Positions 7,487-60,526 of a DNA stretch of 64,000 bases are shown here, in pieces. Numbering within the stretch: the stretch's first letter is position 1; every line of letters starts with the position of its first letter. A program made the position numbers and the translations under genes. Location of the stretch: contig JBBABX010000001.1 in the NCBI GenBank assembly GCA_041657405.1, positions 106,316 to 170,315 on the forward strand, given 5' to 3'. The notes under the pieces are model-generated. The model had not been told where the DNA came from. It worked only from the letters and a program-made list of their open reading frames with translations, and searched no databases. Origin of the DNA: Minisyncoccota bacterium (GTDB taxonomy: Bacteria > Patescibacteriota > Minisyncoccia > Phycocordibacterales > XYD1-FULL-46-19).

Positions 7487-8086
7487 TCAGGGGGGCCATT
7501 GCGGAACCACAAACCGGTTACGGTCCTCGGCGCGCCAGACGTTGTCGTCGGACAAGCAGTACACGTGCGTCCTAAACCGGGCATCGCCAAGCCGATAGAC
7601 GTCAGCAACGAAGAATTCCTCGTCATTTTCTGTCCCCTTCTTCAGCTTTACGCTGAAAAGGAAGAACGTGGCCAAACCTTTCGGATGAAGTTTGTCGGAA
7701 TTAGCCTCAAAGAAAGTTATGATCTGGTCTTGCGACCAGAACAACTTCTTGAAATCATCCACACCAAACCCTCCGAAGATCTGCTCGAAGGTGCCATCTT
7801 TGATCATTTCAAAGACCTCAAACGACGCTTCTTCGGTGACGGGACTAGCTACGTCCGTCCCCCAGAAATCGAGTTTGAGGTAACGTGCTCCGGTTGTGGC
7901 ACCGAGAACACCAATGGTGATCTTGCGAAGATAGGGGTTGCTATACGTCTCATCCACGATCTGTTGAAGCATCCTCGTAACTTTTTCCAGATCACGTTTG
8001 TCATCCACCAGAAGTTTACAGACAGTGGCCCACAGTTTAAAGAGACGTTCCCAGACATTCTTCTCAACGTTCTTGTCACTACTCAT
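7487..8086 (-). CDS. hypothetical protein (199 aa), GC-rich orphan
   Basis: long ORF. A same-phase antisense ORF 7499..8122 also exists; substitutions between the duplicated 3' segment and copy A are mostly synonymous or conservative in the minus frame, favouring the minus-strand gene. Confidence 0.5.
   Translation of the reverse strand: MSSDKNVEKNVWERLFKLWATVCKLLVDDKRDLEKVTRMLQQIVDETYSNPYLRKITIGVLGATTGARYLKLDFWGTDVASPVTEEASFEVFEMIKDGTFEQIFGGFGVDDFKKLFWSQDQIITFFEANSDKLHPKGLATFFLFSVKLKKGTENDEEFFVADVYRLGDARFRTHVYCLSDDNVWRAEDRNRFVVPQWPP
7494..7618. repeat. copy B of ~125-bp direct repeat (native 3' end of gene 7487..8086)
   Basis: see copy A. Confidence 0.7.
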
Positions 8087-8373
8087 GACTCTACCCTTTC
8101 AAAGATCTTGACCTGCTTCTAACAGGTCGTTTCCCGGGATCTGCCGGAGCAGTCAAGCAAGAACACCTTGCTTTATTCTATCTATTATTATATCAAGGCC
8201 TTATTTTAAACCCTAAAATATCCAGAACTCTCTTTTGTTAATCGTTAATTGTTTTCCCTTTAAGCTGCTAGCTTTTTTCCTTGTTTTCTCTCATTTTAAA
8301 TTCCATATTCCCTATTCTACATACCTCATTCTATCTCCAACATACTATATGCTATATTTTAAATACTATCCCC

Positions 8374-9240
8374 ATGCCCGAACTCCCTGAAGTAGAAACC
8401 TTAAAAAGAGAGCTCGCCAAAGCTCTGCCTGGCCGACAAATAAAGTCGGTGGAAGTTTTGTGGTGGAAAACGGTTTCCCCCCTCTCGCCAGAAGAATTCG
8501 CTAAACAAATGGCTGGCAAAAAAATTGTTGACATTAGTCGCCGCGCCAAAATGCTTTTTATTAACTTTGCCGACACGACCGCACTCGCCGTCCACCTTAA
8601 AATGACCGGCCAGCTTATTTTTGAACCCAAAAAAGGCCGGGCCATCGGCGGTGGCCACCCCGATCAAGCCCTTGCCGAAAAACAACCGACTAAACACACC
8701 CGCTTAATTTTTGAATTCAAAGACGATAGCAAACTTTATTTTAATGACCTTCGAAAATTCGGCTGGGTTCGTTTAGTTACCGATCAACAAATGAAACAAC
8801 TCATCAAACCTTATGGCTTAGAACCCTTGTCAAAAATTTTTACTGATCAAGCTTTGACTGATATTTTTAAACATCACCCCAAACGTTCTATTAAAAAAAT
8901 TTTACTAGACCAGTCGTTGATTGCCGGTTTGGGCAATATTTATGTTGATGAATCTTGTTTTCAAGCAAGGCTCTTGCCAACCAAACAAGCTCTTAATCTA
9001 AAGCCAGCAGATTTAAAACGACTACGTTTGGCGATTATTAGAATCCTTAAATTTTCCATCCACCACAAAGGCACATCATCTAAAAATTATCGTCGTTCAA
9101 ACGGTTCGCCGGGAGGATTTGTTCCCCATCTCAAAGTTTATGGACGCGAAAATAAACCTTGTAAAATCTGCGGCCACCCAATCCAAAAAATCACCCATGC
9201 CAGTCGTGGCACACATTTTTGCCAGCATTGTCAGAAATAA
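8374..9240 (+). CDS. mutM: formamidopyrimidine-DNA glycosylase (Fpg/MutM)
   Basis: N-terminus MPELPEVE (catalytic Pro2, Glu3); H2TH region; C-terminal zinc finger CKICGHPIQKITHASRGTHFCQHCQ; start moved to ATG at 8374. Confidence 0.9.
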   Translation: MPELPEVETLKRELAKALPGRQIKSVEVLWWKTVSPLSPEEFAKQMAGKKIVDISRRAKMLFINFADTTALAVHLKMTGQLIFEPKKGRAIGGGHPDQALAEKQPTKHTRLIFEFKDDSKLYFNDLRKFGWVRLVTDQQMKQLIKPYGLEPLSKIFTDQALTDIFKHHPKRSIKKILLDQSLIAGLGNIYVDESCFQARLLPTKQALNLKPADLKRLRLAIIRILKFSIHHKGTSSKNYRRSNGSPGGFVPHLKVYGRENKPCKICGHPIQKITHASRGTHFCQHCQK

Positions 9241-11676: not shown

Positions 11677-12504
11677 TTATATTTCAAGGCTGATGCCAAC
11701 TGGACAATGGTCGGAACCGAGTTGAGTATCTAAAATAAATGCCTCTTTAACATTTTTTTTAAGGGTTTTACTAACCCAAAAATAATCTATCCGCCAACCA
11801 ATATTTCTTGCCCGTGCATGAAATTTATAACTCCACCACGAATAAATTTTTTCTTTGTCACCATGCACAAATCGAAAAGTATCTATTAAACCAGCGGCTG
11901 CAAATTTATCCGCCCATTTTCGTTCTTCATCAGTAAAACCAGGATTGCCTATATTATCCCTAGGTCGGGCCAAGTCAATTTCTTTATGCGCCACATTAAA
12001 ATCACCACAAGTAACAACCGGTTTAATTTTTTCCAACTTCTTAATATGTTTGAGCCATTTGTTGTTAAAATCCTCTTTCAAGGCTAGACGAGAAAGATCA
12101 TGACGCACATTTGGAAAATAAGTATTAACAAAAAAGAACCTTTCAAATTCCAAGGTCAACACTCTCCCCTCCTCATCCTCGCCATTTGTTTGACCTGGCA
12201 AAACAAAACCATAACCAACAGCCAAAGGCTCAATTTGAGAAAAAGCTGCTGTGCCAGCATAACCTGGCTTCTTGGCAGAATGCCAATATTCGGCATAATC
12301 AACAAAATCCCAACCAGAAACCGACGGGTCTTGAGCAGAAAATTTTTTTGCCATCTTCTCTCGATCAACATTGGCAATTTTGATCTCTTGCAAACCTAAA
12401 ATATCCGGCTTAACTTCTGTCAAAAACTCCCCCAAGAAACCATTTTTAATTACCGCCCTTATCCCATTAACATTCCAAGAAAACAACTTAAGCGCTTTAT
12501 TCAT
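11677..12504 (-). CDS. xth: exodeoxyribonuclease III / AP endonuclease
   Basis: LFSWNVNGIRA, QEIK, GDFNVAH, SDHCPV motifs of the ExoIII family. Confidence 0.9.
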   Translation of the reverse strand: MNKALKLFSWNVNGIRAVIKNGFLGEFLTEVKPDILGLQEIKIANVDREKMAKKFSAQDPSVSGWDFVDYAEYWHSAKKPGYAGTAAFSQIEPLAVGYGFVLPGQTNGEDEEGRVLTLEFERFFFVNTYFPNVRHDLSRLALKEDFNNKWLKHIKKLEKIKPVVTCGDFNVAHKEIDLARPRDNIGNPGFTDEERKWADKFAAAGLIDTFRFVHGDKEKIYSWWSYKFHARARNIGWRIDYFWVSKTLKKNVKEAFILDTQLGSDHCPVGISLEI

Positions 12505-53329: not shown

Positions 53330-54028
53330 TTAAAAATGATTTAAATTTTTAGGTCGATACTGAAATGCTTCTAACAAATGTTCTTCTCTGATATCTTTTT
53401 CTTCAGCGAGATCCGCAATCGTGCGAGCTAATTTAATAAGTCTATGATAGGCACGAGCTGAAAGGTTTAACTTGGAGGCTGATTCATTTAATAATTTTTG
53501 GCAGACGTTATTAAGTGGGGCATATTTTTCTAAATCCCTAGTATTCATCTCGCTGTTATAATATTTATTTCTTTCTTTTAGTCGTTCAGTTTGAATTGCA
53601 CGAGCTTTGACAACTCTTTCAAGAACTTTTTGGGAATATTCTCCTTTTTCTGTTTCGCTTAACTTTTTATATTCTACGGTGGGCACTTCTAACCATAAAT
53701 CAATGCGATCTATGACTGGACCGGAAATTTTATGTTGATATTTTTGAATTTGTCCCATTGAACAAACACATTCTTTAACGCGTGAACCAAGATATCCACA
53801 AGGGCAAGGATTCATTGCAGCGATCAAAATAAAATTAGCTGGGAAGTTCATATGTCCGCGCGAACGAGAAATACTTATGACCCGATCTTCTAAAGGTTGA
53901 CGCAGGGCCTCAATCACTTTTTTGTCAAATTCCGGAAATTCATCCAATGCCTTTGTCCCACAATTGTCTACTGGCTCACTTTTTAGTAGTATCTGACCAT
54001 GTACGACAATGGAAGTGTAGGAGAGCAA
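53330..54028 (-). pseudogene. comM: comM/yifB (Mg-chelatase-like competence protein), 5'-truncated: only the C-terminal ~230 aa present
   Basis: hallmark LDEFPEF...ALRQPLEDRVISISR...AAMNPCPCGY; Lon-like N-domain and Walker A are absent; homology stops at the junction with GC-richer foreign DNA. Confidence 0.7.
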
Positions 54029-54211
54029 ATACTGAATGGGGTCTTTAATGCCCTTTGGATTATTGCCCTACCTTTTGTTGGTATCTATCTATTATTGAAA
54101 TGGTTTGTTGTGGGAATAACAAAAGAAACTGGTAATAGGATTATAAAAATAGTGGGTGGAGCAATTGCTGTCGGAATAGTTGGATATATCTCAACTTTCT
54201 TTCTCAATTAA
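53999..54211 (+). CDS. small 2-TM membrane protein at the island edge (tentative)
   Basis: ATG ORF, 70 aa, hydrophobic (WIIALPFVGIYLLLKWFVVGI..., GGAIAVGIVGYISTFFL). Confidence 0.3.
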   Translation: MYDNGSVGEQILNGVFNALWIIALPFVGIYLLLKWFVVGITKETGNRIIKIVGGAIAVGIVGYISTFFLN

Positions 54212-54213
54212 AT

Positions 54214-54246
54214 TGTAGGACGTTTCTTATAAGGTGTGTCCCACAA
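54214..54246 (+). repeat. copy 1 of 33-bp hairpin motif TGTAGGAC-N16-GTCCCACAAA
   Basis: tgtaggacgtttcttataaggtgtgtcccacaaaa; seen directly. Confidence 0.6.
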
Positions 54247-54248
54247 AA

Positions 54249-54632
54249 TTAACTACTAGGATTGCAATTTAAGTATCTAAATGAATTATTTTGTCCTTGC
54301 CCCCAAGCCACCACTATTTTTTTATTAAGATACCTGTTTCTTATCTCATCGGGAGCAATTTTTCCTTCAAACTCCCACTTTGTGGGTTCGTACTCAGCTT
54401 TTTTCCATCTATCTATACTAAATACACCCTTTACTCTGTTTTGGTAAATAGCTAGTGCATAGTCTACTAAATCTTTAGACTCGCCAGTTTTGCTTAAAGA
54501 CCAAGCTTGTTTGGCTATATCGTAAATAGAGTTCTCATCCCCTTCCATGTGGGGTCTATAAGTTTGCGATATGTTCAACAATATAACTTTATCCTCTATG
54601 TCTTCCAGTCTAATTTCTTCTAAATTCTCCAT
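54249..54632 (-). CDS. hypothetical protein (127 aa)
   Basis: ORF; divergent partner of 54880..55581; bracketed by the hairpin-motif copies. Confidence 0.4.
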   Translation of the reverse strand: MENLEEIRLEDIEDKVILLNISQTYRPHMEGDENSIYDIAKQAWSLSKTGESKDLVDYALAIYQNRVKGVFSIDRWKKAEYEPTKWEFEGKIAPDEIRNRYLNKKIVVAWGQGQNNSFRYLNCNPSS

Positions 54633-54810
54633 GCTTTAATTGTAGCAAAGCGGTAGCTATTACAAAAAGTCTGCCCCACAATACGTTACTATTTAGGTAT
54701 GGTTTCAAAATTAAGAGCTTCAATCATTGTAGTGATTGTTGGACTAGCTTCTTTCTGGTTGGGTATGCAGACAGTAGTTCCTTGTGATTGTATTTCCAGA
54801 TTTGCTCTAC

Positions 54811-54843
54811 TGTAGGACACGATTTACGGTACGTGTCCCGAAA
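54811..54843 (+). repeat. copy 2 of 33-bp hairpin motif (tgtaggacacgatttacggtacgtgtcccgaaa)
   Basis: seen directly in the divergent intergenic region, ~37 nt upstream of the 54880 start. Confidence 0.6.
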
Positions 54844-54879
54844 CTTGCTTTACGTTGGTAGTCATATACGATAGATTCT

Positions 54880-55581
54880 ATGCCGAATAATAATTTCCAA
54901 ACACTACTGAAATTCTTTCTGGATGAGTTTGAAATGGAACTATTATTTGATCAAAGAAAACCTCAAAATATACAAGAAGGGATTTTAATCACTATCTTTA
55001 ATAGGATAAATGATATTCATACAATAATAGAACGACTTGGTCGTTACGATGTTTATTTTGATGCTTTTTATCCAGAAAATGATAGTCAGATTAGTGACGC
55101 TGAAGCAATTGAGTATCATCTCCACAGTTACTTACAGGACTTTTATTCTTTAAACGAGAAAGTTAATAGATTACTAGGATATATAAAGAACAATATTAAA
55201 CATTTTGATGTTGGTAATCCAGATGTTGTTAAAAAATTATTGGAACACTTACTCAATCAGGTTGGAAATGGTTTGAAGCAGGTTAATAATTTACGTGGTG
55301 ACCACGTCCATGACATGTCTGTTCGTGACAGTGAAATCTCAAGAGCAAAAATGCTTAAGACTTTAATGGGTTTTCATGAGGGAATTGACGAGCAAGCTGT
55401 AAAGGAAAAATACCAAACCATTATTGTAGAGACAAAGAAGAAATATGTTGGTCAAGCAGAAGCCAATAGAGAACAATTAAATGGAATGCGAAACTTTATC
55501 GCCCCAAGACTAGGACATGTTATTGCTTTCTTATATCAAAAGGACAGCTCTATATTTGAGAAAGAAATGTCACAAAATTAA
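54880..55581 (+). CDS. hypothetical protein (233 aa)
   Basis: ATG ORF, no recognisable motif. Confidence 0.45.
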   Translation: MPNNNFQTLLKFFLDEFEMELLFDQRKPQNIQEGILITIFNRINDIHTIIERLGRYDVYFDAFYPENDSQISDAEAIEYHLHSYLQDFYSLNEKVNRLLGYIKNNIKHFDVGNPDVVKKLLEHLLNQVGNGLKQVNNLRGDHVHDMSVRDSEISRAKMLKTLMGFHEGIDEQAVKEKYQTIIVETKKKYVGQAEANREQLNGMRNFIAPRLGHVIAFLYQKDSSIFEKEMSQN

Positions 55582-55694
55582 GTGACAACTACTGCGGTTA
55601 ACGTCCTGTAAAAGATTACGATAGTTAACGTATCCTCTCGTACGCGTGTACGCGCGCGGGAATGTGCCTTAAATATGGACTTGGGATATTGGTT

Positions 55695-55728
55695 TGTAGG
55701 ACAGCTATTAGTATTTCTGTCCCACAAA
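55695..55728 (+). repeat. copy 3 of 33-bp hairpin motif (tgtaggacagctattagtatttctgtcccacaaa)
   Basis: seen directly between 55581 and 55870. Confidence 0.6.
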
Positions 55729-55869: not shown

Positions 55870-57294
55870 ATGAACAAGGAAGCAATCGAATACATACAAA
55901 ATCAAATGAACAGAAGTGAGGACAGGCTTCGCCCGTATGTTTTTGCTACACCTACGTTCACCTTCCCTGAACGCCATGTTGTTATTCGTATTAAAAAGTA
56001 TGTTTCTGATTTTCTTGGAGGGAAACGAGACTTTCGTTGGGTAGTTGTGCCTGGTCTTCGTGGAGTTGGTAAGACAACTGCAATGGCACAAGTCTTTCTT
56101 ACTGCGAAAACAACTCGAACAAAAAGTGACTTTTTATATATGTCTGTTGATGACCTCACTACCAGAGGTCTTTCGTTGAATGATGCTCTGGATGCATACG
56201 AAGTAATTTTAGGAAAACCATTTGAAAAACTAGACAGCCCTGTCTTGATGTTTATTGACGAAGTACAACAAGATCCAAACTGGGCAGCTATTCTTAAATC
56301 ACTTCATGATAGAGCAAGAAATGTATTTCTCTTCTGTACTGGTTCGTCTGCTGTTTCTCTCCAGTCAAACCCTGATGTAGCTAGACGTGCACAATTTGAG
56401 AAATTGTACCCATTGAGTTTTGGTGAGTACGAGATGATTAAAAATAACATCTTTCCGCAAAAGGGTCTTAAAGAAAGAATCAAGGAAGCTTTATACGGTG
56501 CTTCAAATGCAGAGGACGCATATAACAGACTCAAACCATTGGAAGCTTCTGTCGCTTCACAGTGGGCAAAATTTGACCGCTCAAATATAGACGAATATCT
56601 ACTCAATGGTACGTTACCTTTTACGCTCAAAGCAATTACTCCTAACGCCTACGACAACATAAATATTCTACTCGATAGAATTATCGACAAAGACATCAAA
56701 GAGTTGGGGCAGTTTGACGCGGCTACCTTAAGTGCAATAAAACGACTTCTTTTCATAATGGCTGACAGTGACATCATCAGTGTCAACAAAGTGAAAGACA
56801 TCATAAACCTAAGCTACAACACAGTGATGTCCGTGTTGGATGTTCTGGAACGTGCGGAGCTTATTATTAAAGTTCCAGCACAGGGTTCTAAAACAAGCCA
56901 AGCACGCAAACCATCAAAGTATCTGTTTATGAGTCCAGCACTTCGTTCAGCATTGTTGAGTGTGAGTGGTGTAGAGGGTACTTATCTCGCACGCAAAGGG
57001 AAATATTTGGAAGACATCGCAGGGCTACACTTCTATCGAGAATTTGTTGCTCCACGTATTGGCTCTCTTACCCACGACCCAACACAAGGGAGTGCTGATT
57101 TCATTTTACAGATAGCCGACAAGAAACAGTTAGCGTTTGAAATGGGACTTGGTAGAAAGGGTTATGACCAAGTCAAAACAACAATGGGAAACTTCAAGAT
57201 TGATTTTGGAGTGGTTGTTTGTGCAACTGACCTCATGCTTTCAAGAGAAGATAATGTTCTCAAACTACCATTGGACTATTTCCTATTGATGTAA
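55870..57294 (+). CDS. AAA+ ATPase of the AAA_14 + DUF4143 architecture
   Basis: Walker A VVPGLRGVGKTTAM, Walker B LMFIDEVQQDPNW, ...FCTGSSA...; GC-rich. Confidence 0.65.
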   Translation: MNKEAIEYIQNQMNRSEDRLRPYVFATPTFTFPERHVVIRIKKYVSDFLGGKRDFRWVVVPGLRGVGKTTAMAQVFLTAKTTRTKSDFLYMSVDDLTTRGLSLNDALDAYEVILGKPFEKLDSPVLMFIDEVQQDPNWAAILKSLHDRARNVFLFCTGSSAVSLQSNPDVARRAQFEKLYPLSFGEYEMIKNNIFPQKGLKERIKEALYGASNAEDAYNRLKPLEASVASQWAKFDRSNIDEYLLNGTLPFTLKAITPNAYDNINILLDRIIDKDIKELGQFDAATLSAIKRLLFIMADSDIISVNKVKDIINLSYNTVMSVLDVLERAELIIKVPAQGSKTSQARKPSKYLFMSPALRSALLSVSGVEGTYLARKGKYLEDIAGLHFYREFVAPRIGSLTHDPTQGSADFILQIADKKQLAFEMGLGRKGYDQVKTTMGNFKIDFGVVVCATDLMLSREDNVLKLPLDYFLLM

Positions 57295-57339: not shown

Positions 57340-59104
57340 TCACGAGCCTTTTTTATTTGTGGTTGTGCCTTTATACATACCTGGATTAGCAACAAGCAAA
57401 TCACGGCTCCGCTCATGCTGACTCAATGTTTTGATATGCAATATAAGTCTCATGTTGTCCTGCTGTGAAACAGGCTCGATGTGTTTATCACTCATCACAC
57501 GTGTCGAAACGGGAAACCTAAAGAATACCTCGGCATAGTTCTTCTTAGGGAATAGGTTAATCCTCTCAATGAACAAACGAAGTATGTACTGCTTATCCTC
57601 GTAGCTGACGTTTTCCAGTCTCGTCTTGATTTGCTCGTACAACTTTTTAAGCACAACCCCTCTATCTTTCCGTTCGTCACGTTTAATGAGTACCTGTTCA
57701 AACTTAGCTTTCTGATTCTCCATTGCTTCAATGTTCTCGTTACACTCCTTTAAGTGTTGCTCACATTCTTTCTCTGGAAGACTCTTAAACATGAAAGCTC
57801 TGGTAATTCGAGCACGTTGCTCTAGGAGTGATTTGATTTGCTTCTCACACTGAGCAATTTTCTCATTTGCTTTTTCTGCACTTGAATTCTTGAATGTGTA
57901 CTCTTCCAGTTTCGGTATGACATTCTCAGGGTCTTTAAGTATGGAAACGAGACACTCCCAAATCGGCTCGAGTCGTGTCTCGGCGTACTGATATCGTACA
58001 AATTTATTCTCTGGATTATTCGCGTTCTCTAACATATGTGTGATAGTACTTTCCTAGTGTCCGTGAGTCCTTTCCAACTTTTGGAGTTTGGTACCCACTT
58101 TGCAACTTGTTACCTGTCTCTCCACAATAAAGGAGTGTTGAGTACAGGTATGGTCTCTTTGTGTTTCGCTTTGAGTTCTCTCGATTCTTTTTGAGTTGCT
58201 GTATTGAAGCCTGAAACATTTCCTTACTAATGATCTGCGGAACTTTAATTGGTATCCATTCTTCTTCTGGTCTCTGATGTTCTTCTTCAAGTACAGCGTC
58301 AAGATACTTAAATGGTCTCTTGTACTTCCTGTAGTAGAAATCTCCTGTGTATACCTCGTTAACCAAAAGACGATTTATGCTCCGCTTCCACCAGTAGTTA
58401 AACGTCTTACGTTTTTTCTGGGTGTTGTGTTTTGGAGCCGGCATTTCCAATTGATTTGCTCGCTTCGTAATCTCAGTGAGTGAGCAACGCTCGTACACAA
58501 GCCAGTGGTAGAACTGCTTCACGACCTCAGCTTCCTCTGGAATGATTTCCAATTGCTTAGTCTTCTTATCTACCTTATAGCCATAGGGAGGAACGCCAGT
58601 GACCCACTTGTTGTCTCGTGCCGCCTGTTCACGTCCTCCACTCATTCGTTCCCTAATAACTTCACGTTCAAGCTCTGCAAGACTCCCCAACATTTGAAGT
58701 ACGAATCTTCCGTTTGGTGTACTGGTATCAAATGATTCAGTAGCCGACTTGAATTCAATATCAAGTTCGAGAAGTTTCTCAACAGCGTCTAGGAGCTTTC
58801 TGGTACTCCTAAAAAATCTGTCTAGACGATACACAATAACGATGTCGAACTTCTTTGCCTTTGCGTCCTCAAACAATTTCTTCAATCCGTCACGTTTCTC
58901 AATCGCCAGTGAGCCAGATTTACCCTCATCTCCGTATGTGAGTATATTTTCAATATCATACGAATCAGGTTGGCTCTCGCAGAACTTCTGCAAGCGTTCC
59001 TTTTGTACTTTGATTCCATACTTATCATCCTTTGCTTGCTCATCAGTAGAAACTCGTGTGTACAATGCAACTCTCTTCTTTTGTATATTTAACTCAGTCA
59101 TCAT
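57340..59104 (-). pseudogene. large serine recombinase (resolvase catalytic domain + recombinase domain + coiled-coil) interrupted by a 1-nt frameshift at ~58016-58035
   Basis: N-terminus RVALYTRVSTDEQ (catalytic Ser); ORFs 58016..59104 (362 aa) and 57340..58035 (231 aa, coiled-coil) overlap by 20 nt in different frames; combined ~590 aa is typical for this family. Confidence 0.7.
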
Positions 59105-59108
59105 TACA

Positions 59109-59360
59109 TTACTTATTGATTACACCCCTAAAGATTCTGCGTAGATGACGTGTTAGCAACATGCGATACATCCGCTTGATGTTGGGAAGCAATTTTTTTG
59201 ACATAGATTGATTTTTAATATCGATACAGATATTTTTCTCATTAACTGGTAAATTGTGTTTGTTACAATATTCAAGCAAAGACGCTTTCTGCCCCTCCGC
59301 TTCTTCATTAGTAGATGTACGTATGTACAATGCTACATTGGGATTTTTTACATTAGTCAT
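59109..59360 (-). pseudogene. second serine recombinase, N-terminal catalytic fragment only (83 aa)
   Basis: NVALYIRTSTNEEAEGQKASLLEYC... parallels the resolvase catalytic motif; truncated after ~80 aa; directly upstream of the large recombinase. Confidence 0.5.
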
Positions 59361-59571
59361 AATTTTTTTGGTTAAATCTCACTACCAGTCGTCCGTCCTT
59401 GCTCTTTACGTAGAATTTCTTTGATTTAGGAAACCCTGACTCAATGAGCAAGTTCCTGACGAAGCTTTCTGGTGTGAATCTTTTAATTTTGCGATTGGTT
59501 TGTTTTTTCATATTCCTATAAAACGCTGTATTTAAGCCATTTATAGGACATATTAGATACGGATAGGACAA
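59353..59571 (-). CDS. hypothetical basic 72-aa protein
   Basis: ORF only. Confidence 0.3.
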   Translation of the reverse strand: MSYPYLICPINGLNTAFYRNMKKQTNRKIKRFTPESFVRNLLIESGFPKSKKFYVKSKDGRLVVRFNQKNYD

Positions 59572-59839: not shown

Positions 59840-60526
59840 CTACAAGACTATCTTTGACCGTTCTACGTCCTGAGTCCTCTGCATGAATGACACTAGCTTT
59901 GACCACTTTTGCTCAAGATCAACTGGAGAACCAATCACTGGAGCATACTTCTTGCCATTCGTTACCTGCACAAGACCGATAACTTGTTCAACCATTTCAA
60001 TTCCGTAGTGTTCTACTAACTTCTCGATTGCTTTGACTTGTCTCCTATCTCTCTTTAAGTCATCCGTCCTGTGTTGAGCAACTGACCGAAACATTTCTAT
60101 CAACCTGTCTGCCACAATGTTTACGACTTCTGGTTCCTGTTCCACGTCACTCTCCAACACAAGACTTATTTCATTCGTTTTGTACTTTGACCTCTTCACA
60201 CTAATGAATCCTTTCTCCTCAAGACTTACCAACACCCTCGGCACTTGAGCCTTGCTCACACCCGAACCTTTGTTTCTTGAACCTATACCAGTCACAAACT
60301 GACTAATACTTATCTTGTCCGTGGTTCGTTGGAATCCAAGTGTCTGCCTGAGAATGAAGTCCAAACACTTCTGTTCGACTCCACTGAGTGAGTGCCAGTA
60401 CGATTCAAGGATGGTTGGATACTTGAAGAAGTCTCGCTTGTACTCTTTTTTGAATCCGGGGAATCTCGTATTCTGTTCATTTTCTTTTTCCATAAATTCA
60501 AGACAGTACACACCCTGTTCCGCCAA
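59840..60526 (-). CDS. phage replication protein O-like / replisome-organiser-like wHTH protein
   Basis: ...QKCLDFILRQTLGFQRTTDKISISQFVTGIGSRNKGSGVSKAQVPRVLVSLEEKGFISVKR fits the Phage_rep_O N-terminal pattern (kv.l.i.r.t.Gw.k..d.iS.sq......G.s......al..L.e.G.I). Confidence 0.45.
   Translation of the reverse strand: MAEQGVYCLEFMEKENEQNTRFPGFKKEYKRDFFKYPTILESYWHSLSGVEQKCLDFILRQTLGFQRTTDKISISQFVTGIGSRNKGSGVSKAQVPRVLVSLEEKGFISVKRSKYKTNEISLVLESDVEQEPEVVNIVADRLIEMFRSVAQHRTDDLKRDRRQVKAIEKLVEHYGIEMVEQVIGLVQVTNGKKYAPVIGSPVDLEQKWSKLVSFMQRTQDVERSKIVL

Follow-up and report, generated by a model that had tools for sequence, protein, structure and literature searches.

A probable naturally split large serine integrase, encoded by two overlapping genes in a comM-targeting element of Patescibacteria

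Large serine recombinases (LSRs) like SprA of SPbeta and the integrases of Bxb1, PhiC31 and Listeria A118 (LI integrase) share a domain order, from a catalytic domain with a Ser nucleophile through a recombinase domain to a ribbon domain that has a coiled coil inserted in it, as well as a common logic of attachment (att) sites, in which inverted-repeat arms surround a 2-bp core and the target of integration is a gene. The serine-recombinase system CcrA/CcrB of SCCmec requires two polypeptides, whose genes are adjacent. The serine recombinase sr1WO of phage WO in Wolbachia integrates in a Mg-chelatase (comM-type) gene, fragments of which are found at both flanks (PMC9203015). In an engineered split-intein system, the halves of the phiC31 integrase, split in the recombinase domain at beta9/alphaI, need intein trans-splicing (PMC6868429). 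Within the limited literature searched, the only split serine integrases described are engineered systems with inteins, and nothing relevant was found there on natural split or frameshifted LSRs, on serine-recombinase elements of Patescibacteria or on dual attP sites. Here, we describe an integrase locus in a 64,000-nucleotide stretch of DNA (the window, in whose numbering all positions are given) from a Minisyncoccota bacterium of the Patescibacteriota (GenBank assembly GCA_041657405.1, contig JBBABX010000001.1, positions 106,316 to 170,315). Two overlapping open-reading frames (ORFs) of 362 and 231 amino acids (aa), referred to as the N-ORF and the C-ORF, lie in an ~ 11.84-kb element that interrupts the host comM gene at its Walker-B codons. 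The domains, the fold and the logic of the att sites identify it as a large serine integrase, and with a probability of about 0.6 the enzyme is functional and naturally split, each ORF being one of its two cistrons.

An earlier note, made from the letters of this DNA, had listed ORFs of 83, 362 and 231 aa and the 20-nt overlap of the last two, and all of these were found in the minus-strand ORF list exactly where it had placed them (Table 1). The N-ORF matches the Pfam families Resolvase (9.3e-39, residues 12–167), with the serine nucleophile motif YTRVSTDEQ, and Recombinase (PF07508; 1.3e-16, residues 189–307), the latter following helix alphaE, and no Pfam family was matched by the C-ORF. 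The YTRVSTDEQ and RLDR motifs are invariant throughout the clade of split relatives described below. In the frame translations, the 3′ end of the N-ORF reads ...GKYYHTYVRERE-TAA, also written ...LGKYYHTYVRERE-TAA, and the C-ORF starts with MLENANNPENKFVRYQYAETRLEPIW, its ATG being formed by T-ATG-T of the Tyr-Val codons. The junction had been described as a GC-rich patch, a description that does not hold, as its GC content is 34–35% compared to 36% for the window; its longest homopolymer is 3 nt. A blastn comparison of the locus with phage and plasmid collections returned no match.

The product of the two pieces joined into one sequence was modeled with AlphaFold (pLDDT 82). The best Foldseek matches of this model were the full-length integrases of SPbeta, Bxb1 and PhiC31 over ~ 580 columns, the structures 9y66/9dxh, 9iu2 and 9tep being matched along the full length with the coiled-coil region covered, and in phmmer the fused sequence aligned to SprA straight across the junction, ribbon (ZD) domain included. 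The 362-aa and 231-aa pieces therefore reconstruct a canonical LSR, as had been proposed. The N-ORF covers the catalytic and recombinase domains and ribbon strands 1–3, and the remainder, namely ribbon strand 4, helix alphaJ, the coiled-coil hairpin and an alpha/beta subdomain at the C-terminus, belongs to the C-ORF. Ribbon strands are modeled at residues 325–327, 333–338 and 352–356, followed by a short strand at 372–374 and a helix at 375–390, and the coiled coil is predicted as a long helical hairpin (409–438 and 444–471, together spanning 409–471) that belongs wholly to the C-ORF. The break falls inside a low-confidence loop, residues 357–371 (block-mean pLDDT 53–72), between ribbon strand 3 and strand 4/helix alphaJ, and the model thus suggests a structurally tolerant split site. 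In LI integrase, the zinc ligands of the ZD are Cys274, Cys277, Cys302 and Cys314 (PMC3783163), and the break loop corresponds to the loop bearing Cys302 and Cys314, the second zinc-binding pair. The four-cysteine site itself is not present here, with C327 the sole cysteine left, CGETG in place of CxxC, and the second pair gone. The closest fused relatives are also without these cysteines, and more distant fused ones retain CxxC...CxxC. What the fission interrupted is therefore a variable surface loop, in a ribbon domain already without its zinc site.

A search with the fused sequence returned full-length proteins of 554–654 aa at only 41–56% identity, and the hits of 60–93% identity were all 353–385 aa long, except P0076 (427 aa). 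All of these short proteins stop 4–9 residues past an invariant LGKYYHTYV. A search with the C-ORF alone returned 23 stand-alone clusters of 210–251 aa. Ten split lineages were compared at the DNA level (L091, L004, L176, L175, L006, L174, L010, L008, L173 and L172), spanning 60–97% aa identity. Each has an N-ORF followed by a C-ORF of 223–235 aa in the +1 frame with an overlap of 20–29 nt, and the split always occurs at the same loop, such that in the window and in 10 of 10 lineages of the clade the LSR domains are not on one polypeptide but in two ORFs in different frames. The arrangement is common to all retrieved relatives of at least 60% identity (20 N-ORF and 23 C-ORF protein clusters). 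Among the fetched loci with the junction on the contig, those with an N-part identity of at least 60% are all split in the +1 sense and those of 58% or less are all fused except L048. In L048 (51% identity), the N- and C-parts lie in different frames and the N-part match ends early, which could reflect an independent frameshift or a sequencing error. P0087/L171 ('GKYYFSRVPKI') was set aside, as its contig ends 60 nt past the stop and has 2.5x coverage. Between the window and L091, the N-ORF had a dN/dS of 0.03 and the C-ORF one of 0.08, and for nearly all other pairs dS was saturated with dN of 0.13–0.41 in both ORFs. The relaxed selection and disruptions that are the hallmark of a pseudogene were not seen, dN/dS being 0.03–0.08 where measurable and both ORFs being intact in all ten lineages. 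That the split is shared and that both halves are under selection despite this divergence indicates, at the level of sequence comparison, that the split of the large recombinase is old and that both halves have been retained by selection.

The start codon of the C-ORF is also conserved. Its Met is kept in 23 of 23 clusters, and the ATG is embedded in a Tyr codon that reads TAT in 10 of 10 lineages, compared to a TAT usage of 44% in these genes (P = 2.4e-4). Among 11 invariant Tyr columns, only the ATG-embedding one is TAT in all ten, and the fused relatives L012, L013 and L092 have TAC at that Tyr. From this conserved ATG, it appears probable, by a modest margin, that the C-ORF is made as a separate polypeptide. 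An SD (Shine-Dalgarno)-like motif at −18 to −6 was present in only 5 of 48 long ORFs of the window, and leaders are AT-rich; the host genome mostly initiates translation without Shine-Dalgarno pairing. The genes of the integrase operon abut or overlap, and the rarity of Shine-Dalgarno motifs together with this packing points to translational coupling. Homology to the closest fused relative, P0002 (VPEREGARSNIRVQYGESRL), runs in the frame of the N-ORF (frame A) up to the stop and in that of the C-ORF (frame B) immediately after it, and the ancestral lesion is therefore a +1 shift at that point, that is, one extra base or two missing ones.

The ends of the element show the site of its integration. 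attR marks the right end, after which true comM sequence begins at 53944 (DEFPEF...), and the left end, attL, lies ~ 1.8 kb past the end of the window, at ~ 3303–3335 of L001, which extends past the window and holds both parts of comM, the N-terminal one (ChlI and Mg_chelatase profile positions 1–116) and the C-terminal one that lies at 53330–54028 of the window. The sequence of attL is GGAGTTTTATTC-TT-AGAGACT-GTCCCACAA and that of attR is TTGTGGGAC-AAAGGCA-TT-GGATGAATTTCC. Joined across the core, they rebuild a symmetric attP, TTGTGGGAC-7-TT-7-GTCCCACAA (centre sequence TTGTGGGACAAAGGCATTAGAGACTGTCCCACAA), with perfect 9-bp inverted repeats in a 7+2+7 spacing, and an attB, GGAGTTTTATTC-TT-GGATGAATTTCC (centre sequence GGAGTTTTATTCTTGGATGAATTTCC), that is in frame in comM at Walker B (GVLFL|DEFPEF). 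This junction and the P-arm motif recur in every split lineage and also among fused relatives.

The comparison that bears most strongly on whether the split enzyme has been active is that with L091. Its integrase is 97–98% identical to that of the window in amino acids and 90.7% in nucleotides, whereas the host ComM proteins are only 53% identical. The attL and attR of L091 are the two halves of the internal CT site of the window at 55694–55727, and the internal full site of L091 (core TT) consists of the attR P-arm and the attL P′-arm of the window (L091 coordinates 1199–1630 and 11893–11920, compared with window 53945–55727). Window and L091 thus hold the same element in circularly permuted form, integrated via different attP sites, which requires excision and re-integration after the split arose. 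These relations indicate that the element has moved since the split and that split-enzyme elements have entered the same comM codon independently in very different hosts, and they suggest that the split integrase has catalyzed attP x attB recombination in that time. No other recombinase was found within the window.

The history of the split was followed in a neighbor-joining tree of the integrase N-part with 200 bootstraps, in which the split sequences and fused P0002 form a clade in 197 of 200. P0002 itself (in L177) is a fused 607-aa integrase that tends to nest inside the split clade and may be a revertant. Divergence differs between the two parts, with a dN of 0.25 for the N-ORF compared to 0.13 for the C-ORF between L006 and L008, and a dS of 0.84 compared to 0.33 between the window and L091, a discordance that suggests recombination at or near the split.

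In the reading that we prefer, the C-ORF would be translated by coupling to, or re-initiation from, ribosomes that end the N-ORF 17–26 nt downstream. The ribbon domain would then be re-formed non-covalently, with strand 4 and helix alphaJ of the C-piece docking on strands 1–3 of the N-piece, giving a heterodimeric 'protomer' whose catalytic, DNA-binding and coiled-coil functions are those usual for an LSR. This heterodimer would recombine attP, with its 9-bp inverted repeats in 7+2+7 spacing, with attB in the Walker-B codons of comM. Several points weigh against this. The separate polypeptides are deduced solely from the conserved ATG. This ATG may be older than the split, since P0002 has one there too (CAT-GTG), and that frame B is open from the ATG to the stop is not significant (joint P about 0.10) and was dropped as evidence for a real start. 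Engineered phiC31 halves, split in another domain, fail non-covalent complementation, and split TnpX regained DNA binding and not recombination (PMC6868429 for both), and a covalently fused product might therefore be needed. The switch of frame in the homology to P0002, right at the stop, is what a +1 shift there would exploit. The split clade is monophyletic without P0002 in only 12 of 200 bootstraps, and given that P0002 nests with the split clade, the history would include reversion, two origins or recombination. Finally, an unseen helper integrase elsewhere in the genome may be the mobilizer.

The alternative that survives best, although we consider it unlikely, is programmed +1 recoding at or near the N-ORF stop (e.g., GAA-TAA-T read as GAA-AAT), which would give a single ~ 587-aa integrase and leave the 362-aa product as a by-product or regulator, as for IS3 OrfA/OrfAB or RF2. 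It would account for the +1 relation of the frames in 10 of 10 lineages, for the homology that changes frame at the stop (in L006, YVPENRGK* / NSIRVQY compared to VPEREGARSNIRVQY in P0002) and for the need of engineered phiC31 halves to be covalently joined for activity, and in the several lineages with AAA-TAA the tRNA-Lys could re-pair on AAU at 2 of 3 positions. However, the P-site codon before the stop differs among lineages (GAA, AAA, TAT, AGA and CGA), the stop lies anywhere from 4 to 7 codons past the Tyr-Val motif, and the base after TAA is variable in the ten lineages. No SD-like stimulator at a fixed spacing was found at the junctions, and no conserved RNA structure was found there by RNAalifold (−3.85 kcal/mol, 5 pairs). 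An RF2-like site was rejected, given that there is neither a conserved shift-prone codon nor a stimulator, and transcriptional slippage was rejected as no lineage has a homopolymer longer than 3–4 nt. A site of the RF2 type would also be expected to have no start codon downstream, whereas the ATG is present in 23 of 23 clusters and its TAT is selected, and recoding leaves both of these unexplained. The earlier note had raised a programmed event and suggested a search for a slippery heptamer. None was found at the junction, and a −1 heptamer could not join the frames of the N-ORF and C-ORF because the shift needed is +1, so programmed frameshifting is disfavored by this result as well as by the variable P-site codon, the lack of homopolymers and of conserved RNA structure, and the selected downstream start.

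Less probable still is that the two ORFs have diverged in function, the N-ORF alone being the recombinase and the C-ORF a trans-acting factor, such as a coiled-coil controller of directionality or synapsis. Both ORFs are conserved, as this would require, and the discordant relatedness of N- and C-parts suggests that they can be exchanged as modules. Against it, the C-ORF keeps ZD strand 4 and helix alphaJ with near-invariant residues (RVQYAETRLEPIW), these pack on the N-ORF strands in the model, and LSRs without the ZD are known to lose att-site discrimination (Rutherford 2013, PMC3783163).

That the integrase is a frameshifted pseudogene and the element a fixed remnant is very improbable, although the overlap and stop codon resemble a frameshift, the neighboring recombinase fragment is truncated and the cysteines that would bind zinc have been lost. 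Neither ORF is disrupted in the 10 lineages or in more than 20 clusters, despite saturated dS and with low dN/dS, the C-ORF start codon is selected, the attL and attR sites are preserved intact, and integrations occurred independently via different attP sites into hosts with ComM 53% identical and integrases 97% identical; the loss of cysteines is seen in fused relatives, too. The earlier note had held both recombinases to be inactivated, and this stands for the truncation of the 83-aa ORF and fails for the large pair, which is split clade-wide with both ORFs intact and under purifying selection. Recent decay is likewise contradicted by the same loop being split, always in the +1 sense, in all retrieved relatives of at least 60% identity. 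An indel from assembly or sequencing, which the note had also considered and for which nothing speaks beyond the look of the locus, can practically be dismissed, since the DNA for the 362-aa protein is identical in three other assemblies (one Logan and two MEGAHIT in the ENA) from three other samples, making four assemblies from two assemblers at 100% identity, homopolymers are at most 3 nt at a GC content of 35%, and the same frame offset occurs in ten diverged lineages.

The window holds further attP-like sites between the integrase and attR. The array is directly oriented with a common layout of 9-bp arm, 7 nt, 2-bp core, 7 nt and 9-bp arm. With the used TT core, the cores of the window are CT, GT, AT and TT, i.e., all four NT, and a GC core was found elsewhere in the family. 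These cores equal positions 1 and 2 of the hydrophobic codon that precedes the Asp of the comM Walker B. An internal CT site is present in all 11 family loci whose used core is not CT, and fused-integrase relatives also carry such arrays. As the cores enumerate codon variants, one element could integrate into hosts differing at that codon, and in the pair described above the window used its TT site in a host with a TTG codon and L091 its CT site in a host with a CTG codon. This pair supports what the arrays suggest, namely that they match codon variation among hosts. The combined picture, of a natural heterodimeric LSR that reassembles its ribbon domain and of attP arrays whose cores cover the comM codon variants, is put forward tentatively and is somewhat less probable than not. 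The segments between attP-like sites hold one ORF or none. Two ORFs, at 54880–55581 (+, 233 aa) and 54250–54630 (−, 127 aa), each stand alone between consecutive sites in a cassette-like manner, and L091 is without this ~ 1.36-kb stretch; neither the 233-aa nor the 127-aa ORF matched a family.

Table 1 Features of the integrase locus and of the element in the window (N-ORF and C-ORF, the two parts of the split LSR)
Feature	Position	Strand	Details
N-ORF, split LSR, 362 aa	58016..59104	(-)	ORF list, Pfam
C-ORF, split LSR, 231 aa	57340..58035	(-)	+1 frame relative to N-ORF; ORF list, frame translation
Dual-coding overlap of N-ORF and C-ORF, 20 nt	58016..58035	(-)	
C-ORF ATG	58033-58035	(-)	Inside N-ORF codons TAT-GTT (Tyr357-Val358)
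N-ORF stop TAA	58016-58018	(-)	
Truncated resolvase-like ORF, 83 aa	59109..59360	(-)	Between the conserved small ORF and the integrase
Conserved small ORF, 72 aa from TTG	59353..59571	(-)	52 aa if begun at the probable ATG near 59511
Internal full attP-like site, core CT	55694..55727	(-)	TTGTGGGAC-AGAAATA-CT-AATAGCT-GTCCTACAA
Degenerate internal attP-like site, core GT	54810..54843	(-)	TTTCGGGAC-ACGTACC-GT-AAATCGT-GTCCTACAG
Internal full attP-like site, core AT	54213..54246	(-)	TTGTGGGAC-ACACCTT-AT-AAGAAAC-GTCCTACAA
attR	53945..53963	(-)	P-arm TTGTGGGAC, spacer AAAGGCA, core TT (53946-53947), then G-GAT-GAA-TTT-CC of comM
ORF with C-terminal part of interrupted comM	53330..54028	(-)	Mg_chelatase profile positions 108-206 and Mg_chelatase_C
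Rep_O-like replication initiator of the element	59840..60526	(-)	
AAA_14/DUF4143 ATPase, cargo	55870..57294	(+)	Flanked by the integrase and the first of the internal attP-like sites

The 83-aa ORF upstream of the integrase gives a weak match to the N-terminal part of Resolvase in Pfam (5e-4, under the curated cut-off). It aligns to the first 91 residues of a counterpart in L091 (34% identity, E = 2e-11), which is 145 aa long (7980–8414) and has a complete catalytic domain without a DNA-binding part (Pfam 3e-23). A second counterpart, beside the fused P0002 in L177 (1857–2324), is 155 aa long with the nucleophile Ser changed to Pro. An exhaustive HMMER search returned only an 89-aa short form (57% identity, the same end, Ser to Pro) and a 150-aa long form. 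Such catalytic-domain-only resolvase-like ORFs (145–155 aa, or 83–89 aa in the short form; P0146, P0148 and P0149) occur in a minority of elements, located between the small ORF and the integrase, and in two of them the nucleophile Ser is replaced by Pro. The ORF in the window holds only the first half of the catalytic domain, everything past the RLDR-like motif being absent, and therefore cannot itself be a recombinase. It is a truncated relic of a catalytic-domain-only resolvase, shorter than its 145–155-aa relatives, and a member of this small sporadic group, in agreement with its description in the earlier note as part of a second resolvase-type catalytic domain.

Among the split lineages compared upstream, the window and L091 have an extra gene at this position, and in the nine others the start of the integrase is overlapped or directly abutted by the conserved small ORF. 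The small ORF has the motif ...FxPExFxxxLLxExGFPKxKKFxVKxKxGxLVVRF, matched no Pfam family, and is a candidate regulator or directionality factor, probably translationally coupled to the integrase in the lineages compared. Conservation extends in frame upstream of its Met (PYLICPINGL, ~ 59512–59571), where it could instead reflect a signal at the DNA level.

Cargo varies among the related elements and includes SduA_C, M78 peptidase with a helix-turn-helix (HTH) gene, restriction-modification systems, and Rep_O or Prim-Pol. At the position held by the AAA_14/DUF4143 ATPase in the window, relatives carry either SduA_C or M78 peptidase plus HTH. Defence-type cargo dominates, comprising SduA_C (Shedu), M78 peptidase with HTH, restriction-modification (RE_AlwI, NgoFVII and Z1) and methyltransferases, and the stretches concerned lie at 7817–9073 and 12–3817 of L004, 7796–8657 of L010 and 1–2496 of L006.

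An integrase of this kind would be taken for a pseudogene by annotation pipelines and by readers, whereas it seems to be an enzyme maintained as two genes, and frameshifted recombinases of small-genome bacteria need to be read differently in this light. If the reading as two cistrons is correct, LSRs can work as non-covalent split enzymes, counter to the experience that the halves of serine integrases need covalent joining, and the loop of the former second zinc knuckle would be a permissive site for two-input integrase switches without inteins. If the attP arrays with their different cores are real integration sites, they would let an element deal with codon variation in a protein-coding target in a way not described before. 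The loci also define, in Patescibacteria, whose mobile elements are poorly known, a family of small integrative elements that target comM and carry restriction-modification and defence genes.

Among the known systems, the insertion of phage WO by sr1WO resembles the present one as a serine-recombinase insertion in a comM-type gene, a likeness of target. Phage WO consists of full prophages with single-ORF recombinases, whereas the element described here is a ~ 12-kb non-phage element with a split recombinase that carries Rep_O or Prim-Pol together with restriction-modification and defence cargo. IS3 OrfA/OrfAB and the RF2 gene prfB likewise have overlapping ORFs whose fusion is the full enzyme. 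The RF2 shift is +1 at a stop, and that of IS3 is −1 and unable to join the frames here; unlike both, the present locus has no conserved slippery codon, SD-like stimulator or RNA structure, and has a downstream start of its own. CcrA and CcrB are two complete paralogous LSRs, whereas here the two ORFs would encode complementary halves of one. Compared to SprA, Bxb1, PhiC31 and LI integrase, the integrase here is divided between two overlapping cistrons broken inside the ribbon domain, retains one of the four zinc cysteines (C327), has an extra C-terminal alpha/beta subdomain and is found in Patescibacteria as hosts. As in the engineered split integrases (phiC31 split-intein and TnpX), an LSR is distributed over an N- and a C-polypeptide that would have to come together for activity, but the natural split lies in a loop of the ribbon domain, and no intein joins the two parts.

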